64,000 nt of DNA from a virus (lineage: Duplodnaviria; Caudoviricetes), in IMG/VR virus record IMGVR_UViG_3300028048_000059, positions 64,001 to 128,000 of that record. One strand, given 5' to 3'. The position numbers and the translations under genes are program-made. Under the pieces are notes generated by a model. The model ran no database searches. It saw nothing but the letters and a program-made list of their open reading frames with translations, and was not told the DNA's origin. Shown in pieces: positions 25,673 to 52,764 of the stretch (position 1 is the first letter of the stretch; the number at the start of each line of letters is the position of its first letter).

Positions 25673-28600
25673 TCACCTATTCAAAACACTAAAATCAACA
25701 TTTTCAAACAAGAAATCTCGTCTGCCATCAACTTCTGGCCCCATGAGCATCGTGATACTTTCAGACGCGGCTTCAACGTCATGAATTGTTAGCACTTCGA
25801 GCCGACGCTCAGTAGGATGAAGCATTGATTTCTCCATATCATCTGCTGAGAGTTCGCCCAACCCTTTTGCGCGTGTAATTTCCCAAGTTTCTCTACCCTT
25901 ACGAATTTTAGCTAATTCTTCATCATTATAGGCAAATAATTTATTATTACCTTTTTCAATTTTATAAAGTGGCGCGCGAAGCCAGCAAAGCCTTCCTTCT
26001 TCAATGAACTTAGGCATCAATACATAAAATAGAGTAGAAATTAGACACATAATTGAAAAACCATCTACCATTTATACCCTGACTTTAGTCATATTTTTCT
26101 AAAAGTTCTTGGAATTTATTATACTTTCTATCCATCCAGATTGTTGCATTATCATATAAATAATGATAAAATTTTATAACTTGCTGATTACCATCTAATC
26201 TCCAATACCAAGTATGCTCACGTCGTTCTTCTTTATAAACACGCCCCATTTTTATTACAGAATATATCCATTCTACAACCGGCTTTGTAGTTGTAAAACT
26301 AACGTTAAAACTTATATGGGTTGAATCCTTTCTCGGGCACCTGCAAAGCGCTCCATCTCCATCAAAGAATCCACGTAAGAAATGTCTGATTAGAGCTTCT
26401 GGAACATGTTTTGGTGGTTCTAGAATAAGAGTTTTTTGTTTAACACAACCTTTATCAATTAAATCATTTACAGTTTTTTGAGAACATAATACTAACTTAT
26501 GTAGTGTTTGTTTGCCATATCTATTTCCACTATAATCATATAGAATCGGATTCGTTGCTTTTAAACTCACTTTAAATTTTTCAATTACGTCAGCACTATC
26601 TTCAGCAACGGTAATTCCAAAATGATCTTGCCCATAATTATTTTCATTATTGACAATATAACCGTCAGCAAACATAAAGCCTAGCCAATAAGCTTTTTCT
26701 TCAGTATCAATTGTCTCAAAAAAATTTTCATCATGAAAATATTTTCTGTAATGATTACCTTTTGTTGTTTTAACCCCTATGCTTTCTAACCATTTACTTA
26801 TTCTTAATCTAGTATGATGGTATTTCTTTTCTAATTCTCGTAATGAGACATTATTTTTATAATCAGCAATTATATTTTGTTTTTCTTCTTCGGATAGTAA
26901 TTGTTCTAAGGTTTTTCCTGCCATACTATCACCTCCAATTCTAAGGTGATATAGATGGGTAGTGGTTCGTATAATTTCTTCCAAAAATTTTATCGGGATT
27001 AGACTATACCATCTTCTTATTTCTAAGAAGTCCTTATTATAGTCGTTGAACGTCTCTCCTGTGGGGAGATTTCGCTGCGTTTGGTTACCCAATCCTTTAT
27101 GATTTTACCATACCGAAGCCGTTACTCTTCGCCGCATTTATATTACTATAAATGTTTGGTTATAAAGGCTCTAAGGGAGTTCCCGCAATTTAAAGGATTT
27201 AAAGCGGACCTAGAAGGTTAATCCGCATCAGTGGCAATAGCAACTTTACCATAATTTAATTTTTTACTATTATATCTTTCTTGAATGCCGCATCCAAGTG
27301 CCATAATAATATCAGACACTTCTTGGTTTTCTAGGCACTCGTCAAGCGGATGCTTTAACAGATTTTTTACTTTACCTCTAACTGCATATAGGGCTTCATT
27401 CATTACATTTCGAGCAGGCATAAGGCCGCCAAGGGCTGAATTTCCCTCGCATATAATAAGCATAGAATCCTGTCCATGCTTTTCGCAATCTTTAAATTTA
27501 TCAGAAGAAGTGATTTTTTGCTTTTTATGTTCAACCTCTTTCTTTTCCATATTAAGAACCGCTTCTCTTGCTTTATCAGCGGCCTGCTCTGCTTTCTGTT
27601 CCTTTACTAGCATAGCAAGAATTTTTTCAAAATCAGCACGATTTTTAACAATCCAATCCTTAATTGCATCAGTAAACACAGTTTGTGTCATTCCACGCAA
27701 TTCTTGATTTTGAATTTTATCCTTAACCTGATTCTGGTATACCGGATGCGGATGCTTAATATTAATAATTGTGACAAGACCTTTACGAATCATATCACCA
27801 TCAAAGCTCTCTTTTACTTGATCATTGATAGTCCGCGTAAATGCGGCCTTCATACCAGAACTTGGAGTGCCGCCGCCACTATTTAAAGCGCCATTCGAAA
27901 AAACATAGCACTTTTCTTTTCCAGAAGTCCACTGCGCAAAAACTTCAATATCGATATCTCCATCAAAATGCTTATTAGCATAAATATAGTTTTTATGTAA
28001 TGGATTGCGAATTTTTGTCGCGGCGAAATCTCTTAGTCCGTTCTTTGATAAAAAGACTTCTACATTCTCCATATTATTATAAAGAACAAAGCTAACATTT
28101 GGAATAAAATAACTAGTTAATTCCAATTCTTCTTTGATACGTTTAAAATCGAATGCAGGAGTAGATTCATCAATGTGAAAAATTTTCTTATCTGGTTTAA
28201 AATAAATATGCGTGCCAGTTTCTTTCGTTGCGCGCTTACGAACGGCTTTTTTTGATTGCGGAATGCCATCTTTAAATTCCATATACCATTCAGCGCCATC
28301 TCTCATAGTCCATACTTTAAATTCTTCTGAACATACGCATACAGTAGAGGCGCCAACACCGTGCATTCCACGAACACGAGAATAGTTACTGCTTTCAAAT
28401 TTTCCCGATGAGTGAGCGGTTGTGTATAATTCAATAAGTACTTCTTCGCAATCTTTATTCGCTCCTCTTGGCACTCCCGCGCCATGATCAAAAATATCAA
28501 TTGCGTTATCTTGTACATTCACTTCAATACGGTCGCCGCGTCCCATGATGGCTTCATCGCATGAATTGTTAAGAATTTCAAGGAAACAATTAAAAACTGC

Positions 28601-45997: not shown

Positions 45998-47146
45998 TCA
46001 AATCTCCGTAATACCATCAATAATTAGAGCAAAACTGGGTGCAGATTGTAGTTCAGACTCATGGAAATAGCCATCATAAACATATGGAGCATATTCCTCG
46101 TCCTCTGCAATAATTTCTTCCATTGTCTTACCGCCAACAGTAAATGTGGAAGTATCAAATACATGTAGCGAGCCATCCATAATTGCTCCTTCTACTTCTG
46201 CAACCTTTTCAGCAGTACCTTCTGCAATAACATTCTCATTTAGCTCAGTAATATGTACCGCGCCATCAATATAGCCTTGGCACCAATCGGTAGCAATGGG
46301 CTCACCTTCGATTACGCACTGAACCGCATAGGTATAATATGGCGCCCAATCAATGGCGGCCGAAGTAAGTGAGGTGGTTGGCGCGACAGAATTCATCGAC
46401 ACATTATAACCTACACATGGTACACCTGCGGCCTCACATGCAGTTGGCGCGCCGGTAGTATCGGCATGCTGGCTAATAAGTACGCATCCTTGCGCAATAA
46501 GAGCCTCGGCGGCTTCCTTTTCAAGATCAAATGATGCCCAACTACCAGTATACTTAACAATCATAGTTGCGCAAGGGCACTGCGAACGCACGCCAAGGAA
46601 AAATGCAGTAAAGCCGCTAATAACTTCTGCATATGGATGCGCCCCAACATAACCAATAAGGCAATTATCTTCTGTTACCTTACCGTCAGCAATCATTTCA
46701 GCAAGTTTCATACCTGCTACTACACCAGACACATAACGAGACTCGTGTACAGAGGTAAAATAATTATGGAAATTTGGGATATTAGCTAGCGCCGCATTAA
46801 ATCCAGTAGCATGACAAAATTCAACGTCTGGATATTCATATGCCGCATTCAGTAGGTAGCTTTCGTGGCCAAATGAATTAGCAAATACAATATCACATCC
46901 ACCATCTACTAGGTCAATTGCAGCATCATAACATGCTTCTGTTTCTGGAACTAGCCACTTTGTAACAAGTTGGTCGTCAGTTAGTCCTAGGGCCTCTTGC
47001 ATTTCTAGCGCGCCATTATAGTGCGCGGCGGTATATCCTTCATTTTCGTCTCCGACAAAAATAAAACCTACACGCACATTGGGAGCAGCGAAAGCAACAT
47101 TAAAAGTTAGTAGAGAAATGAGAAATAGTACGACAATCTTCTTCAT
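45998..47146 (-). CDS. BMP-family (PnrA-like) ABC substrate-binding protein
   Basis: VGFIFVGD..EGY..AH, ANSFGH, HATG, YVSGVVAG, SQHAD, DWAPYY; signal peptide. Confidence 0.9.
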   Translation of the reverse strand: MKKIVVLFLISLLTFNVAFAAPNVRVGFIFVGDENEGYTAAHYNGALEMQEALGLTDDQLVTKWLVPETEACYDAAIDLVDGGCDIVFANSFGHESYLLNAAYEYPDVEFCHATGFNAALANIPNFHNYFTSVHESRYVSGVVAGMKLAEMIADGKVTEDNCLIGYVGAHPYAEVISGFTAFFLGVRSQCPCATMIVKYTGSWASFDLEKEAAEALIAQGCVLISQHADTTGAPTACEAAGVPCVGYNVSMNSVAPTTSLTSAAIDWAPYYTYAVQCVIEGEPIATDWCQGYIDGAVHITELNENVIAEGTAEKVAEVEGAIMDGSLHVFDTSTFTVGGKTMEEIIAEDEEYAPYVYDGYFHESELQSAPSFALIIDGITEI

Positions 47147-47241
47147 AAGGTTCTCCTTTTTTATATAAATTGCCGCAGTTAAACGTCGCGGCTTACGCGC
47201 TCCCCAAGGTACGCATTGTTAAGAGGCGTGGGCAAGTCTAT

Positions 47242-47315
47242 TGGCTGGGGACGAAGGAATTGAACCTTCACGCTTCGGGTCAAAGCCGAATGCCCTCCCA
47301 TTAGGCTAGTCCCCA
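47242..47315 (-). tRNA. tRNA-Gln(UUG)
   Basis: Cloverleaf, TTCGG-CT TTG AC-CCGAA, GGTTCAATTCC, CCA. Confidence 0.9.
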
Positions 47316-47319
47316 TTGT

Positions 47320-47390
47320 TGGTGGCGAGGATAGGATTCGAACCTCGTGCTTATTAGGCACGCGAGCTGACTACATGCTCAATCCTCGCG
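47320..47390 (-). tRNA. degenerate initiator-like tRNA, anticodon AAU, shortened variable/T-stem junction
   Basis: CGCGAGG...GAGC/GCTC D-stem, CGTGC-CT AAT AA-GCACG, AGG TTCGAAT CCT, ACCA. Confidence 0.55.
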
Positions 47391-47709
47391 ATATGCAGAC
47401 GGTTTTTCCACAGCATATAGTGAGGAAGTACCGACAAACCCCGATGCATCGTGAGCGCAATTATTAGTCTTTCACCCAGATTTTCACTGGGACTACCTAC
47501 TGCGTATCGCTCAGCCGCCACAGTGCCAGAGACTTCTTTTTTGGGTTCTAACGCGACCCGTGGTGAGGATCTGTGCAGGCAATCTCCACGAAGACGGTTG
47601 GTTCTTTTATATACCGCATCTCTAACTACGGTTCCTAACCTGCCCTCTATTGACTTACCATACTGGCAGGTCGCAAAGACAGCGAAGGGATTAAATGCCC
47701 TATTGGGCA
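47391..47709 (-). ncRNA. unclassified structured RNA between tRNA-Lys and the degenerate tRNA
   Basis: GC-richer stretch with many stems (TGCCC/GGGCA, CCTGCC/GGCAGG, ACCGTA/TGCGGT, CGTGG/CCACG, TAGTC-CCAG/CTGG-GACTA, TGAGCG/CGCTCA). Confidence 0.55.
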
Positions 47710-47784
47710 TGGTGGGAGCACGGGTACTCGAAACCCGAAGGGCAGATTAAAAGTCTGTAATGTTTCCTATTACATCATACTCCC
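47710..47784 (-). tRNA. tRNA-Lys(UUU)
   Basis: CAGA-CT TTT AA-TCTG, TTCGAGT T-loop, GGGAGTA/TGCTCCC, CCA. Confidence 0.85.
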
Positions 47785-47804
47785 ATAGAAAATAATAACT
47801 TATT

Positions 47805-48113
47805 TTACACACCCATCATGCAATTATTGCAAATTGGTAGAATCCATCCGGTTGTATAGTGAGCCGCAGGTGCGCCGCATTTTACACAAACTTTTCCACT
47901 CTTACTTTCGTACCGCTCTTCGATAGCTTCGATGGCAGAAAAGCAACCAGTTGCGCACTCACTATATACACGCATTTGTCCCCACTTCTCTTTTAGCTCT
48001 ATGATACGATAAGTAGGGTCGGCCGCCATGCATTCGTCAATCATAGCTTTTGCAAGTGAATGCCAACCATCTGGTAGTAGTTCAATCCATTCATAATTAC
48101 TCATTTCTTCCAT
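47805..48113 (-). CDS. conserved phage protein
   Basis: PDGW...KEKWGQMRVY...C.KCG...GWI..IC..C. Confidence 0.7.
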   Translation of the reverse strand: MEEMSNYEWIELLPDGWHSLAKAMIDECMAADPTYRIIELKEKWGQMRVYSECATGCFSAIEAIEERYESKSGKVCVKCGAPAAHYTTGWILPICNNCMMGV

Positions 48114-48535
48114 TCGCTTACCTCAATTCCATGCTCACAAAGCCATTGTTGAATTATACGTCTCTCACTACATGGATTTTGCGGAGTTTCATACACTAAG
48201 AATGCAAAATCTACATGTGATAAATTTTCTTCTTGTTTAATTTGTTCTTCTAAGCGCGATAAATTTGTAATAAATTTTTGAAAATCAATTTTATCCAATT
48301 GCTTCTTATAAGCAATTAAAAATTGACAATCATTTGGATGCTTTGGATTACATTTACCATTACACAATCCATCACAACTATGTCCCGGTTTAAGCGGCGG
48401 ACAGTCAATCCATAGCGCGCCATTTTTATCGCGGCCCTTTTGGAGCCACTTAGGATTCCAAACTGCGGTTGAACATCCTACCAACGTTGGCGGAAAATTT
48501 CTTAATTGAGCAAAATATGATGTATATAATTTCAT
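48101..48535 (-). CDS. DUF488-like protein
   Basis: LYTSYFA...P.W...L.P...YE.P...CSER..I..WL. Confidence 0.6.
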   Translation of the reverse strand: MKLYTSYFAQLRNFPPTLVGCSTAVWNPKWLQKGRDKNGALWIDCPPLKPGHSCDGLCNGKCNPKHPNDCQFLIAYKKQLDKIDFQKFITNLSRLEEQIKQEENLSHVDFAFLVYETPQNPCSERRIIQQWLCEHGIEVSEWKK

Positions 48536-48544
48536 AATCGATGC

Positions 48545-49126
48545 GAAAATACCCGTCTTAATAAAATCATTGCGGCCTTCGCCATACTTGTATTATTCTT
48601 CTAACATATTCAGTCACGTTGCAGATAGAGGCTGAGCAACAGGTGATCGGCCTGCACTTCTCTACCCTTTGAACCAACGAGGAGGTTGCTTACTCCCAAA
48701 TTTCACCCGAACCATTCAGCAAATAACGCAAAATGCGCAACTTATTATACTACTTTCTCGCTGCTTTGGGCTACTTTCACCCCAAACCTTACTTATAGAC
48801 CATTTCTGGCTTTCAACAGCAAAAACATCTTATGGATTTTCTTGAGTTTGATACAGTCTCCGGCTAAACCCTTATCAAGATTCAGTCTACGCTTTTAACG
48901 CCTGACTTCTATTATGATGCCGTAAGGAATGGTACTTTTGTTAGCGAATAACCAAGCGCATGCTCATAACATTAGAAATTTCTTCCTATCGCTCATCATC
49001 GCTGATTTTGCGGCCGCGTTAAGTAAGTATCCCAACCTAACGTATGGCTGTTTTGCGAGCATCCTAAGCAGTGTGGTTAGCACTTCTGCACTTAGTTCAA
49101 TCATTTTATTAAGACGAGTATTTTCA
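48545..49126 (-). ncRNA. large ornate ncRNA, ROOL-like (~582 nt)
   Basis: 28-bp terminal inverted repeat closing a 580-nt ORF-free region, internal GCCATAC/GTATGGC pairing, own sigma-A promoter, phage tRNA neighbourhood. Confidence 0.65.
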
Positions 49127-49147
49127 TCCTCTCTTTGTTATGTATTT

Positions 49148-49176
49148 ATTATACCATAAATTTTAAATAAAGTCAA
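49148..49176 (-). promoter_or_regulatory. sigma-A promoter of the large ncRNA
   Basis: TTGACT-17-TATAAT with TG. Confidence 0.85.
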
Positions 49177-49400
49177 CTCTTTTTTGTAATAAATTTCATC
49201 TCAATTTTAGTTCCCCCTGGAATATCAAAATCAGAGAAATAATCTGGTGGAAGCTCACAAATAATACTGGAACCTTCGATATTGAATCTATTACAATACT
49301 TTTCAAAACCGTTGCCAATAAGAGTTTTCATTAGCCACTTGTGAATAGATTTAATAAACTCAGTCTTAGTGGCGGCCGCAGTAAGAACTTTCTTTTCCAT
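49173..49400 (-). CDS. hypothetical protein
   Basis: ORF behind its own promoter. Confidence 0.6.
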   Translation of the reverse strand: MEKKVLTAAATKTEFIKSIHKWLMKTLIGNGFEKYCNRFNIEGSSIICELPPDYFSDFDIPGGTKIEMKFITKKS

Positions 49401-49424
49401 ACTCTATCCCCTTTCAACATATTT

Positions 49425-49453
49425 ATTATAACATAATTTTTATTTAAAGTCAA
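49425..49453 (-). promoter_or_regulatory. sigma-A promoter
   Basis: TTGACT-17-TATAAT. Confidence 0.8.
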
Positions 49454-49458
49454 ATATT

Positions 49459-49533
49459 TGGAGCCACAGACCGGAGTCGAACCAGTAACCTAATCATTAC
49501 AAGTGATTTGCGCTGCCATTGCGCCACTGTGGC
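49459..49533 (-). tRNA. tRNA-Thr(UGU)
   Basis: AATCA-CT TGT AA-TGATT, GGTTCGACTCC, CCA. Confidence 0.92.
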
Positions 49534-49558
49534 ATAGAATGCGGGATGGGCCCGCATT

Positions 49559-50095
49559 TTAGAAGGGAAGTACCATATCGTCTGTGCTCGCCTTATAAGA
49601 AACTGGCTTATCTGTGCAATAAAATACACCTTCGCGTTCTACAAAAATTTCCTTTGCGATCTCTTGATATAGAGTTGAGCATTGTCCATAATAGTCTCCG
49701 AGGTCATCCGTATAGAACTGTACTACACGATTTTGGAAAACGATATAATACATATTGTTTGAAAATACACAAGGGAGAACTCGGGTAAAATTTAACGCAG
49801 GATTACCCTCAAAGGCCGTAATGAAAAGCTCATCAATGTCCATCTTTGTCGGACGGCGTAGGGCCGCCACGCCATTGGCCGGCACGACAGTCACCTTGAC
49901 AGTAACATTGCCAAAAGTCTTCTCTGGAAGCAGAATCTGCGCAATTGCATCTGCCTTTTCGCCATCTTCTACATATACCTTAATTTCAGGAGTAGCCTCA
50001 TCATAAATTACATGCACCTGATCATCATTCTTAAACATTGCATGAATCTGGCGGTAAAAAATTGTCCATGGAGCAGAGAGTTGAAACGTTGCCAT
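49559..50095 (-). CDS. conserved phage protein of unknown function
   Basis: LSAPW...FGNV...AFEGNP...VVQFY.DDL.D. Confidence 0.7.
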   Translation of the reverse strand: MATFQLSAPWTIFYRQIHAMFKNDDQVHVIYDEATPEIKVYVEDGEKADAIAQILLPEKTFGNVTVKVTVVPANGVAALRRPTKMDIDELFITAFEGNPALNFTRVLPCVFSNNMYYIVFQNRVVQFYTDDLGDYYGQCSTLYQEIAKEIFVEREGVFYCTDKPVSYKASTDDMVLPF

Positions 50096-52395: not shown

Positions 52396-52399
52396 ATAA

Positions 52400-52764
52400 A
52401 ATGCGGTTCCTCGCAAGCGAGTCGCCGCAAGTGTAAGTTTTAATCGCGTATTAAAACCTACGGGTGCCAAAGATTTACTCCTCTGGCTTAGCGACTATAT
52501 CAGTAGTTCTACTGCCAACCTCTCAATTACGCCCAAGTTGGTGAGCGGGTAGCTTGCTTGTGGTATTTCCGGATATACCTATCGTCGTAAGCAACGACGG
52601 CTTCTCATAACGAGGGAAATATATCAATAACGCTTTCCATTTTTATTGATATTCGCATTGCTCGCAAGCCTATTTACTGCGCGCTAGATGGGCGGCTTGA
52701 TTCCCTAAAACTGTGAACCGTGTTGGAATTGCACCAACAATATAATGACTTTCTGAGCGGTTCA
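52400..52764 (-). ncRNA. unclassified multi-hairpin RNA beginning with a tRNA-minihelix-like element
   Basis: About ten consecutive stems, no ORF, located between two tRNAs. Confidence 0.55.

Follow-up and report, generated by a model that had tools for sequence, protein, structure and literature searches.

A conserved candidate non-coding RNA bracketed by tRNA genes in the tRNA islands of gut and rumen phages

What does a phage encode in a stretch of 319 nucleotides that fills the gap between two tRNA genes and leaves no base over on either side? The stretch in question, here termed RNA X, lies at positions 47391–47709 (minus strand) of a 64,000-nucleotide window, which comprises bases 64001–128000 of a 157-kb IMG/VR virus record. 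Genes of this cattle-rumen phage include those for DNA polymerase III alpha, gyrase, RecJ, and a GH25 lysin, and DNA that is near-identical to it is present in bovine and sheep gut runs. The original prediction held that an unclassified structured RNA of ∼320 nt, bracketed exactly by tRNA genes, is either a novel non-coding RNA or a domain of a GOLLD-class RNA. Read on the minus strand, the locus extends from tRNA-Thr through a 75-aa ORF, a ROOL RNA (48554–49119), ORF144, and ORF102 to tRNA-Lys(UUU) (47710–47784), and then from RNA X through a tRNA-like gene (47320–47390) and tRNA-Gln(UUG) (47242–47315, in the same orientation) to a gene for a BMP-family lipoprotein. The bounds of the flanking tRNAs given by ARAGORN and the Rfam tRNA model bear out the predicted bracketing to the base: RNA X opens with the nucleotide that follows the encoded CCA of tRNA-Lys and closes with the one preceding position +1 of the tRNA-like gene. 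The stretch is also richer in G+C than the genome, as had been noted: the fraction is 0.489 in RNA X, 0.379 in the genome, and 0.359 in the window. Searches with blastn, nhmmer, and covariance model R1 (305 positions) find it once in the 157-kb genome, R1 scoring 372.8 bits at 47391–47694.

Other features of the window were recorded alongside. A weak match to the abiF RNA motif (47203–47232, minus strand; 29.4 bits against a gathering score of 37) lies between tRNA-Gln and the BMP-family gene. Some 370 gene-free nucleotides between tRNA-Leu(CAA) and tRNA-Ile(UAU) (52396–52764, minus strand) bear no similarity to RNA X. An Rfam group I intron match (26980–27257, minus strand; 56.4 bits against a gathering score of 50) is situated between two ORFs with gyrase B domains, and the gyrB gene of this phage appears to be split by an intron.

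The original prediction would have been abandoned had there been no homologs with covariation, or had an overlapping 118-aa ORF been translated and conserved. Homologs with covariation exist (see below), and the relatives do not preserve the ORF as a protein. It occupies 47354–47710 on the minus strand, starting in the CCA of tRNA-Lys and ending inside the next tRNA. The notion that it, or its counterparts in relatives, is a protein-coding gene draws on one frame that is nearly stop-free in three of the four lineages, with 0–1 stops where the other forward frames have 7–9. However, indels of 1 and 2 nt break this frame in L005 and shift it in the window. Variable columns fall at codon positions 1, 2, and 3 in the numbers 28, 15, and 15, with no excess at the third, and non-synonymous codon changes outnumber synonymous ones by 8 to 1 and by 17 to 1, against a random expectation of ∼26% synonymous. 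A Pfam search of the ORF gave no match, and an exhaustive HMMER search of 1.84 billion representatives returned only spurious ORFs over the same DNA and one unrelated repeat protein. We judge the ORF spurious and a coding gene at this position hardly credible.

Relatives of RNA X were reached through the spurious ORFs that gene callers place over it in metagenome assemblies, together with one 20-mer scan. A nucleotide search of 50,697 phage records returned tRNA similarity only, ORF102 and the BMP-family protein as queries gave no relatives in viral_contigs, and none of three exact motifs of 20–32 nt from RNA X occurs in that collection. Two matches of the 20-mer scan in genome_contigs, both in G+C-rich Proteobacteria, and two of the six in metagenome_contigs, likewise G+C-rich, show no similarity past the word and were discarded as chance; a second protein search, with P0002, yielded mostly translations of tRNA-Met genes. 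Relatives were found in four other contexts on gut and rumen metagenome contigs, making about five contexts in all. Contig L003 has the same context as the window, with an RNA X that is 98% identical. Contigs L004, L007, L008, L011, and L012 represent one phage type that carries at least 26 tRNAs, among them one with a CUA anticodon; L005 and L006 are further carriers, and a sheep-gut contig holds a variant known only as a list of differences. The full form of RNA X measures 374–375 nt in L004, L005, and L006. L004 and L005 have tRNA-Glu(CUC) upstream of it, L006 and the window have tRNA-Lys(UUU), and in every lineage RNA X starts directly after the CCA of that tRNA and ends directly before a gene of the tRNA-Met(CAU) type.

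The protein neighbors of these islands provide observations of their own. ORF144 (window 48101–48535, minus strand; L004:1443–1913; L002:6001–6501; also in L016–L026) sits in tRNA or ROOL islands, matches no Pfam family, and has more than 430 relatives in gut metagenomes. In Phass-1, it is located directly before an initiator-type tRNA-Met; in relatives, its neighbors include PTH2, a KTI12/AAA_33 kinase, a metallophosphoesterase, and a DUF2828 protein, a setting that looks like an RNA-repair neighborhood. A phage that lacks RNA X has, in the equivalent position (L016:5102–5545, between tRNA-Ser and tRNA-Gly and just upstream of tRNA-Gln), a gene-free 444 nt without sequence similarity to RNA X and without an Rfam match, which may be another unclassified RNA. 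Between tRNA-Thr and ORF144 of the same contig (L016:3323–3990), where the gene order would lead one to expect ROOL, there is instead a 151-aa ORF call, and no ROOL match reaches the gathering score. The tRNA with the CUA anticodon in the L004-type phage is encoded at L011:4932–5024 (minus strand), and Phass-1 (L002) is filed under a code-15 clade; TAG may therefore be a sense codon in some carriers of RNA X or in phages akin to them.

Comparison with catalogued RNAs places RNA X in none of the families tested. Rfam 15 has no family that matches inside it, even at E ≤ 10, in a search of 47100–49700, and the long form in L004 likewise gives no match at E ≤ 10. In keeping with the original prediction, no tmRNA signature was detected by ARAGORN (in the window and its relatives) or by Rfam, and no Rfam RNase P model matches at E ≤ 10. 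Its alternative proposal, that the stretch is a domain of a GOLLD-class RNA, is not supported. The GOLLD model (RF01998) has no match in the window at its gathering score and none at E ≤ 10 in 47100–49700 or the L004 long form, and the GOLLD features of ∼800 nt with a conserved 3′ half differ from an RNA of 319–375 nt that is bounded by tRNAs on both sides. The ROOL model (RF03087) matches 48554–49119 at 283 bits (gathering score 99), a separate gene ∼850 nt upstream, and not RNA X. The group I intron model (RF00028) gives no match at E ≤ 10; such an intron would have a final G and a U before its 5′ splice site, whereas RNA X ends in U, is preceded by A, and sits between complete tRNAs rather than within a gene. 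With the tRNA model (RF00005), the sole matches are the flanking genes, which speaks against a run of decayed tRNAs. Within the reach of covariance models, membership in the GOLLD, ROOL, RNase P RNA, group I intron, T-box, and tRNA families is thus excluded.

Several resemblances were followed beyond the models. Bacterial RNase P RNA is similar in length (∼375 nt), in its link to tRNA, and in a few motifs spotted by eye in the window copy (GGUAAGUC, AUAGAGGGCAGG, and GGGUGAAAG). In the consensus, however, the GGUAAGUC segment of RNA X is predicted to pair locally and not in a long-range P4-type helix; inspection by eye revealed no complementary 3′ segment that could act as the P4-type CR-I/CR-V partner, and GGGUGAAAG is not conserved, the relatives reading GGCGAAGG. 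Likenesses to a T-box and to helix 45 of 16S rRNA were seen by eye only and are unsupported by Rfam models or conservation. Mimicry of rRNA was dismissed, RNA X sharing only words of 8–11 nt with the E. coli rrnH operon, as was the 8-nt palindrome GAUGCAUC as a dimerization site, given that we estimate ∼1.4 such palindromes by chance in 375 nt. Alignment revealed no copy of the initiator-tRNA anticodon arm within RNA X. A published survey that presents 10,006 candidates for structured viral RNAs mentions neither the rumen nor ROOL or GOLLD (PMC10690425). RNA X appears to be a new family within a known kind of phage tRNA-island RNA, and the proposal of a novel non-coding RNA is supported: neither the short nor the long form matches Rfam, the sequence is kept in four other contexts, and its compensatory changes exceed the controls.

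The consensus structure was derived with RNAalifold from seven sequences (columns are those of alignment A2; window coordinates are on the minus strand). It comprises, in order, a long irregular hairpin (columns 77–134, 47633–47690), a short hairpin ACCGUA-loop-UGCGGU (columns 135–154, 47613–47632), a nearly invariant multibranch core (columns 163–336, 47436–47604), and a 3′ hairpin (columns 337–374, 47398–47435), followed by a tail that ends in AUAU directly before the tRNA. The long forms add a 5′ domain of ∼70 nt with two hairpins. The window copy lacks ∼55 nt at its 5′ end and has in place of this domain a single 14-nt hairpin, UGCCC-AAUA-GGGCA (47696–47709). The core is predicted to consist of a long-range closing helix around two subdomains, one of which contains the TAGTC/CCAG...CTGG/GACTA stems. 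All stems quoted in the original prediction exist in the sequence, and TAGTC/GACTA and CCAG/CTGG recur in the consensus. Instead of the outer TGAGCG/CGCTCA pairing, the consensus adopts the competing CGCAGT/ATTGCG; every base involved is invariant, so that both pairings are predictions.

Substitutions among the relatives bear on this model. In the long forms, eight pairs have changed on both sides and are still paired, against 1.7 ± 1.2 in shuffled alignments, none of 500 of which reached that count; slid controls gave 0–2. With the window copy included, such pairs number five; the shuffles give 1.3 ± 1.0, a single one of 500 reaching that count, and slid controls give 0–1. The changes are confined to the outer helices and one inner hairpin: two lie in the 5′ domain of the long forms, pairs 79–132 and 91–121 are in the long irregular hairpin, pair 139–150 of the short hairpin occurs as U-A, U-G, and C-G, and pair 341–370 of the 3′ hairpin goes from G-C to A-U in L006. 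Within the core, the inner hairpin pair 211–223 (G-C to A-U) provides the sole compensatory change; since the 175-nt core otherwise never varies, its remaining helices are predictions only. Altogether, 97–98% of alignment cells at predicted pairs remain paired, and every difference between the window copy and its relatives falls in a loop or yields a G-U pair. The covariation appears to provide moderate support for the structure, drawn as it is from about four independent lineages and judged against shuffles that are blind to relatedness. Folding energy is no better than that of shuffled sequence, the window copy having z = −0.81 and the long form z = −0.47, and so the case for structure rests on the comparison of relatives. 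For the opposite strand of the window copy, z = −0.44. The reverse strand also folds (−84.8 kcal/mol, compared with −93.5 kcal/mol for the RNA X strand), and the strand assignment therefore depends mainly on the tRNA context.

The constant downstream partner of RNA X is a gene of the tRNA-Met type. At the position of the tRNA-like gene of the window, the relatives carry an intact tRNA-Met(CAU) whose 5′ sequence is CGCGGGG or differs little from it. Its D stem is G10-A11-G12-C13, positions 1 and 72 are mismatched in three of the four lineages (L008 has U1-A72), and it lacks the three G-C pairs of the anticodon stem. The marks of bacterial initiator tRNA are such a D stem, a 1–72 mismatch, and three anticodon-stem G-C pairs. 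Judged by its sequence, the linked tRNA is probably of the initiator type. The window gene is a decayed version, which has AAU rather than CAU as its anticodon and has lost 7 nt from the variable loop and T stem; its Rfam match (47389–47324) scores 28.5 bits, just below the gathering score of 29, and ARAGORN makes no call. Neither lesion is present in the sheep-gut variant, which retains both the 7 nt and the anticodon C.

The arrangement of the locus also suggests how RNA X could be made. A strong promoter-like site (TTGACT-17-TATAAT with a TG extension; 49148–49176, minus strand), recognized by its match to the consensus only, lies just before ROOL, and another consensus match of this strength precedes the tRNA-Glu pair in L004. 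Between these sites and RNA X, in both the window and L004, we found neither a further promoter-like site of comparable quality nor a terminator-like site, and within the RNA X of the window there is only a weak promoter-like match (9/12, at 47487–47460). The region from the promoter-like site through RNA X may constitute a single transcription unit. Contigs of a bovine metatranscriptome library cover 47445–49100 and 47150–47467; these are assembled contigs, whose depth and termini are no guide to transcription, RNA level, or RNA ends, and the library may contain DNA.

We consider it probable that RNA X is the gene for a structured non-coding RNA of an uncatalogued family, ∼375 nt in its full form, that is processed with its neighboring tRNAs, acts in trans, and is exchanged as a cassette. 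RNA X would be transcribed together with the tRNAs of the phage tRNA operon, and its 3′ end would be generated by an RNase P cut at +1 of the following initiator-type tRNA, where base −1 is U. Its 5′ end would arise as the CCA end of the tRNA before it is matured, a step that is harder to assign, since tRNAs that encode their CCA are not RNase Z substrates and depend on other nucleases. Release by tRNA-processing punctuation would fit this anatomy, given that conserved sequence reaches exactly to the neighboring tRNAs whichever tRNA lies upstream. Once released, RNA X could act in trans as a stable folded RNA, as ROOL, GOLLD, and T4 RNAC and RNAD are thought to do. The weakest step concerns its target, which may be some conserved component of the tRNA or translation-initiation machinery of the host, bound as a decoy or scaffold; the constant initiator-type tRNA partner and the near-invariant core are the only hints of such a target. 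The cassette itself is optional and has probably been exchanged between unrelated rumen phages.

A function in cis is an alternative: RNA X precedes a tRNA of the Met(CAU) type, with the initiator-like features described above, in every lineage and might be a 5′ leader governing how that tRNA is matured or expressed. RNA X persists intact, however, beside a dead tRNA in the window, in L003, and probably in L006, in which the acceptor stem is unpaired, and this survival argues against a purely cis role. It is also far more conserved than the tRNA that it would serve: RNA X is 85–93% identical between lineages, and the linked tRNA is 68–76% identical (74% between the window and the L004-type phage). 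We therefore regard the leader model as quite improbable. Functionless debris, in the form of a decayed tRNA run or the remnant of an intron, might be suspected from a length of about four tRNAs, from the decay of the adjacent tRNA, and from the absence of the region in a close strain. Yet neither the tRNA model nor that for group I introns gives a match within RNA X at E ≤ 10, RNA X is more conserved than working tRNAs, and the window copy keeps every predicted pair despite the decay of its partner, leaving debris a very improbable origin.

More weight attaches to the view that RNA X is a selfish or mobile cassette spread by recombination or insertion, whose conservation reflects recent transfer and whose hairpins are the element's own. 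A 26-kb contig that is ∼97% identical to the window on both flanks joins 47325 to 47805 through 104 other bases; in that phage, 47326–47804 is replaced, and tRNA-Lys, RNA X, and the tRNA-like gene are missing. Relatives that carry ORF144 and ROOL lack RNA X, which was not found with blastn, nhmmer, or R1 in the Phass-1 record or in eleven loci of ORF144-carrying phages. Between the window phage and the L004-type phage, the matching Gln, Thr, Leu, and Lys tRNAs are 58–72% identical and the ORF144 proteins 41%, and ROOL is 63% identical between the window and the nearer relative L025; RNA X, up to 93% identical across such phages, is together with its tRNA all that aligns at the nucleotide level when the 157-kb genome is compared with the other loci. 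The L008 and L004 copies of RNA X are 99.2% identical (0.8% differ), but their linked tRNAs are only ∼84% identical (∼16% differ), a contrast that suggests a recombination boundary. Such identities require a strongly constrained sequence, an exchange between phages in the recent past, or the two together, and identity this high in unrelated phages might stem from recent transfer instead of constraint. Exchange is favored by the patchy distribution, constraint by the pattern of substitutions. As an account of RNA X, a selfish cassette is nevertheless unlikely. No terminal inverted repeats are seen by eye and no associated gene was found, there is one copy per genome, the abutment of both ends on tRNAs without a spacer fits processing better than insertion, and the substitutions spare pairing. 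Mobility and function do not exclude each other. A more ambitious form of the trans-acting reading that we favor would make RNA X a large phage RNA machine of a new class, either a ribozyme or, like ROOL and GOLLD, a complex that assembles itself from RNA only, acting on initiator tRNA or host translation initiation and traveling as a mobile cassette between unrelated rumen phages. It would explain both a core more conserved than the tRNAs and the constant place before an initiator-type tRNA, and we consider it rather improbable.

Between phages that have diverged beyond alignment, the core of RNA X changes less than the tRNAs, which points to a demanding function or to active exchange, and either outcome would be informative. 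Natural controls are at hand in a near-identical phage without the cassette, a copy with a dead tRNA, and a copy without the 5′ domain, and RNA X is small enough to lend itself to in vitro transcription, RNase P assays, pull-downs, and cryo-EM.

Several large RNAs are encoded in phage tRNA islands, among them ROOL, GOLLD, and T4 RNAC and RNAD, and decades after the first of them was seen their functions are still unknown. RNAC and RNAD are encoded among the tRNA genes of T4 and are cut from the same precursors as the tRNAs. RNA X, which is much longer, shares with them its location within a tRNA cluster on the same strand, a likeness of arrangement and not homology. RNAC and RNAD have been described as small phage RNAs 'of yet unknown functions' (PMC9697503). 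ROOL and GOLLD, large structured RNAs of unknown function from phages and prophages, are often close to tRNA islands (PMC12286853). Like them, RNA X resides in a tRNA island and combines a variable 5′ domain with a conserved 3′ part, and a true ROOL shares its island. Unlike them, it is compact (319–375 nt, compared with ∼580 nt for ROOL and more than 800 nt for GOLLD), its ends abut tRNAs exactly, and it is found in only about five contexts. ROOL and GOLLD form multimers, and RNA X might do so too. To the RNAs of phage tRNA islands, RNA X thus adds a compact family with ends defined by the neighboring tRNAs and a fixed initiator-type tRNA partner.
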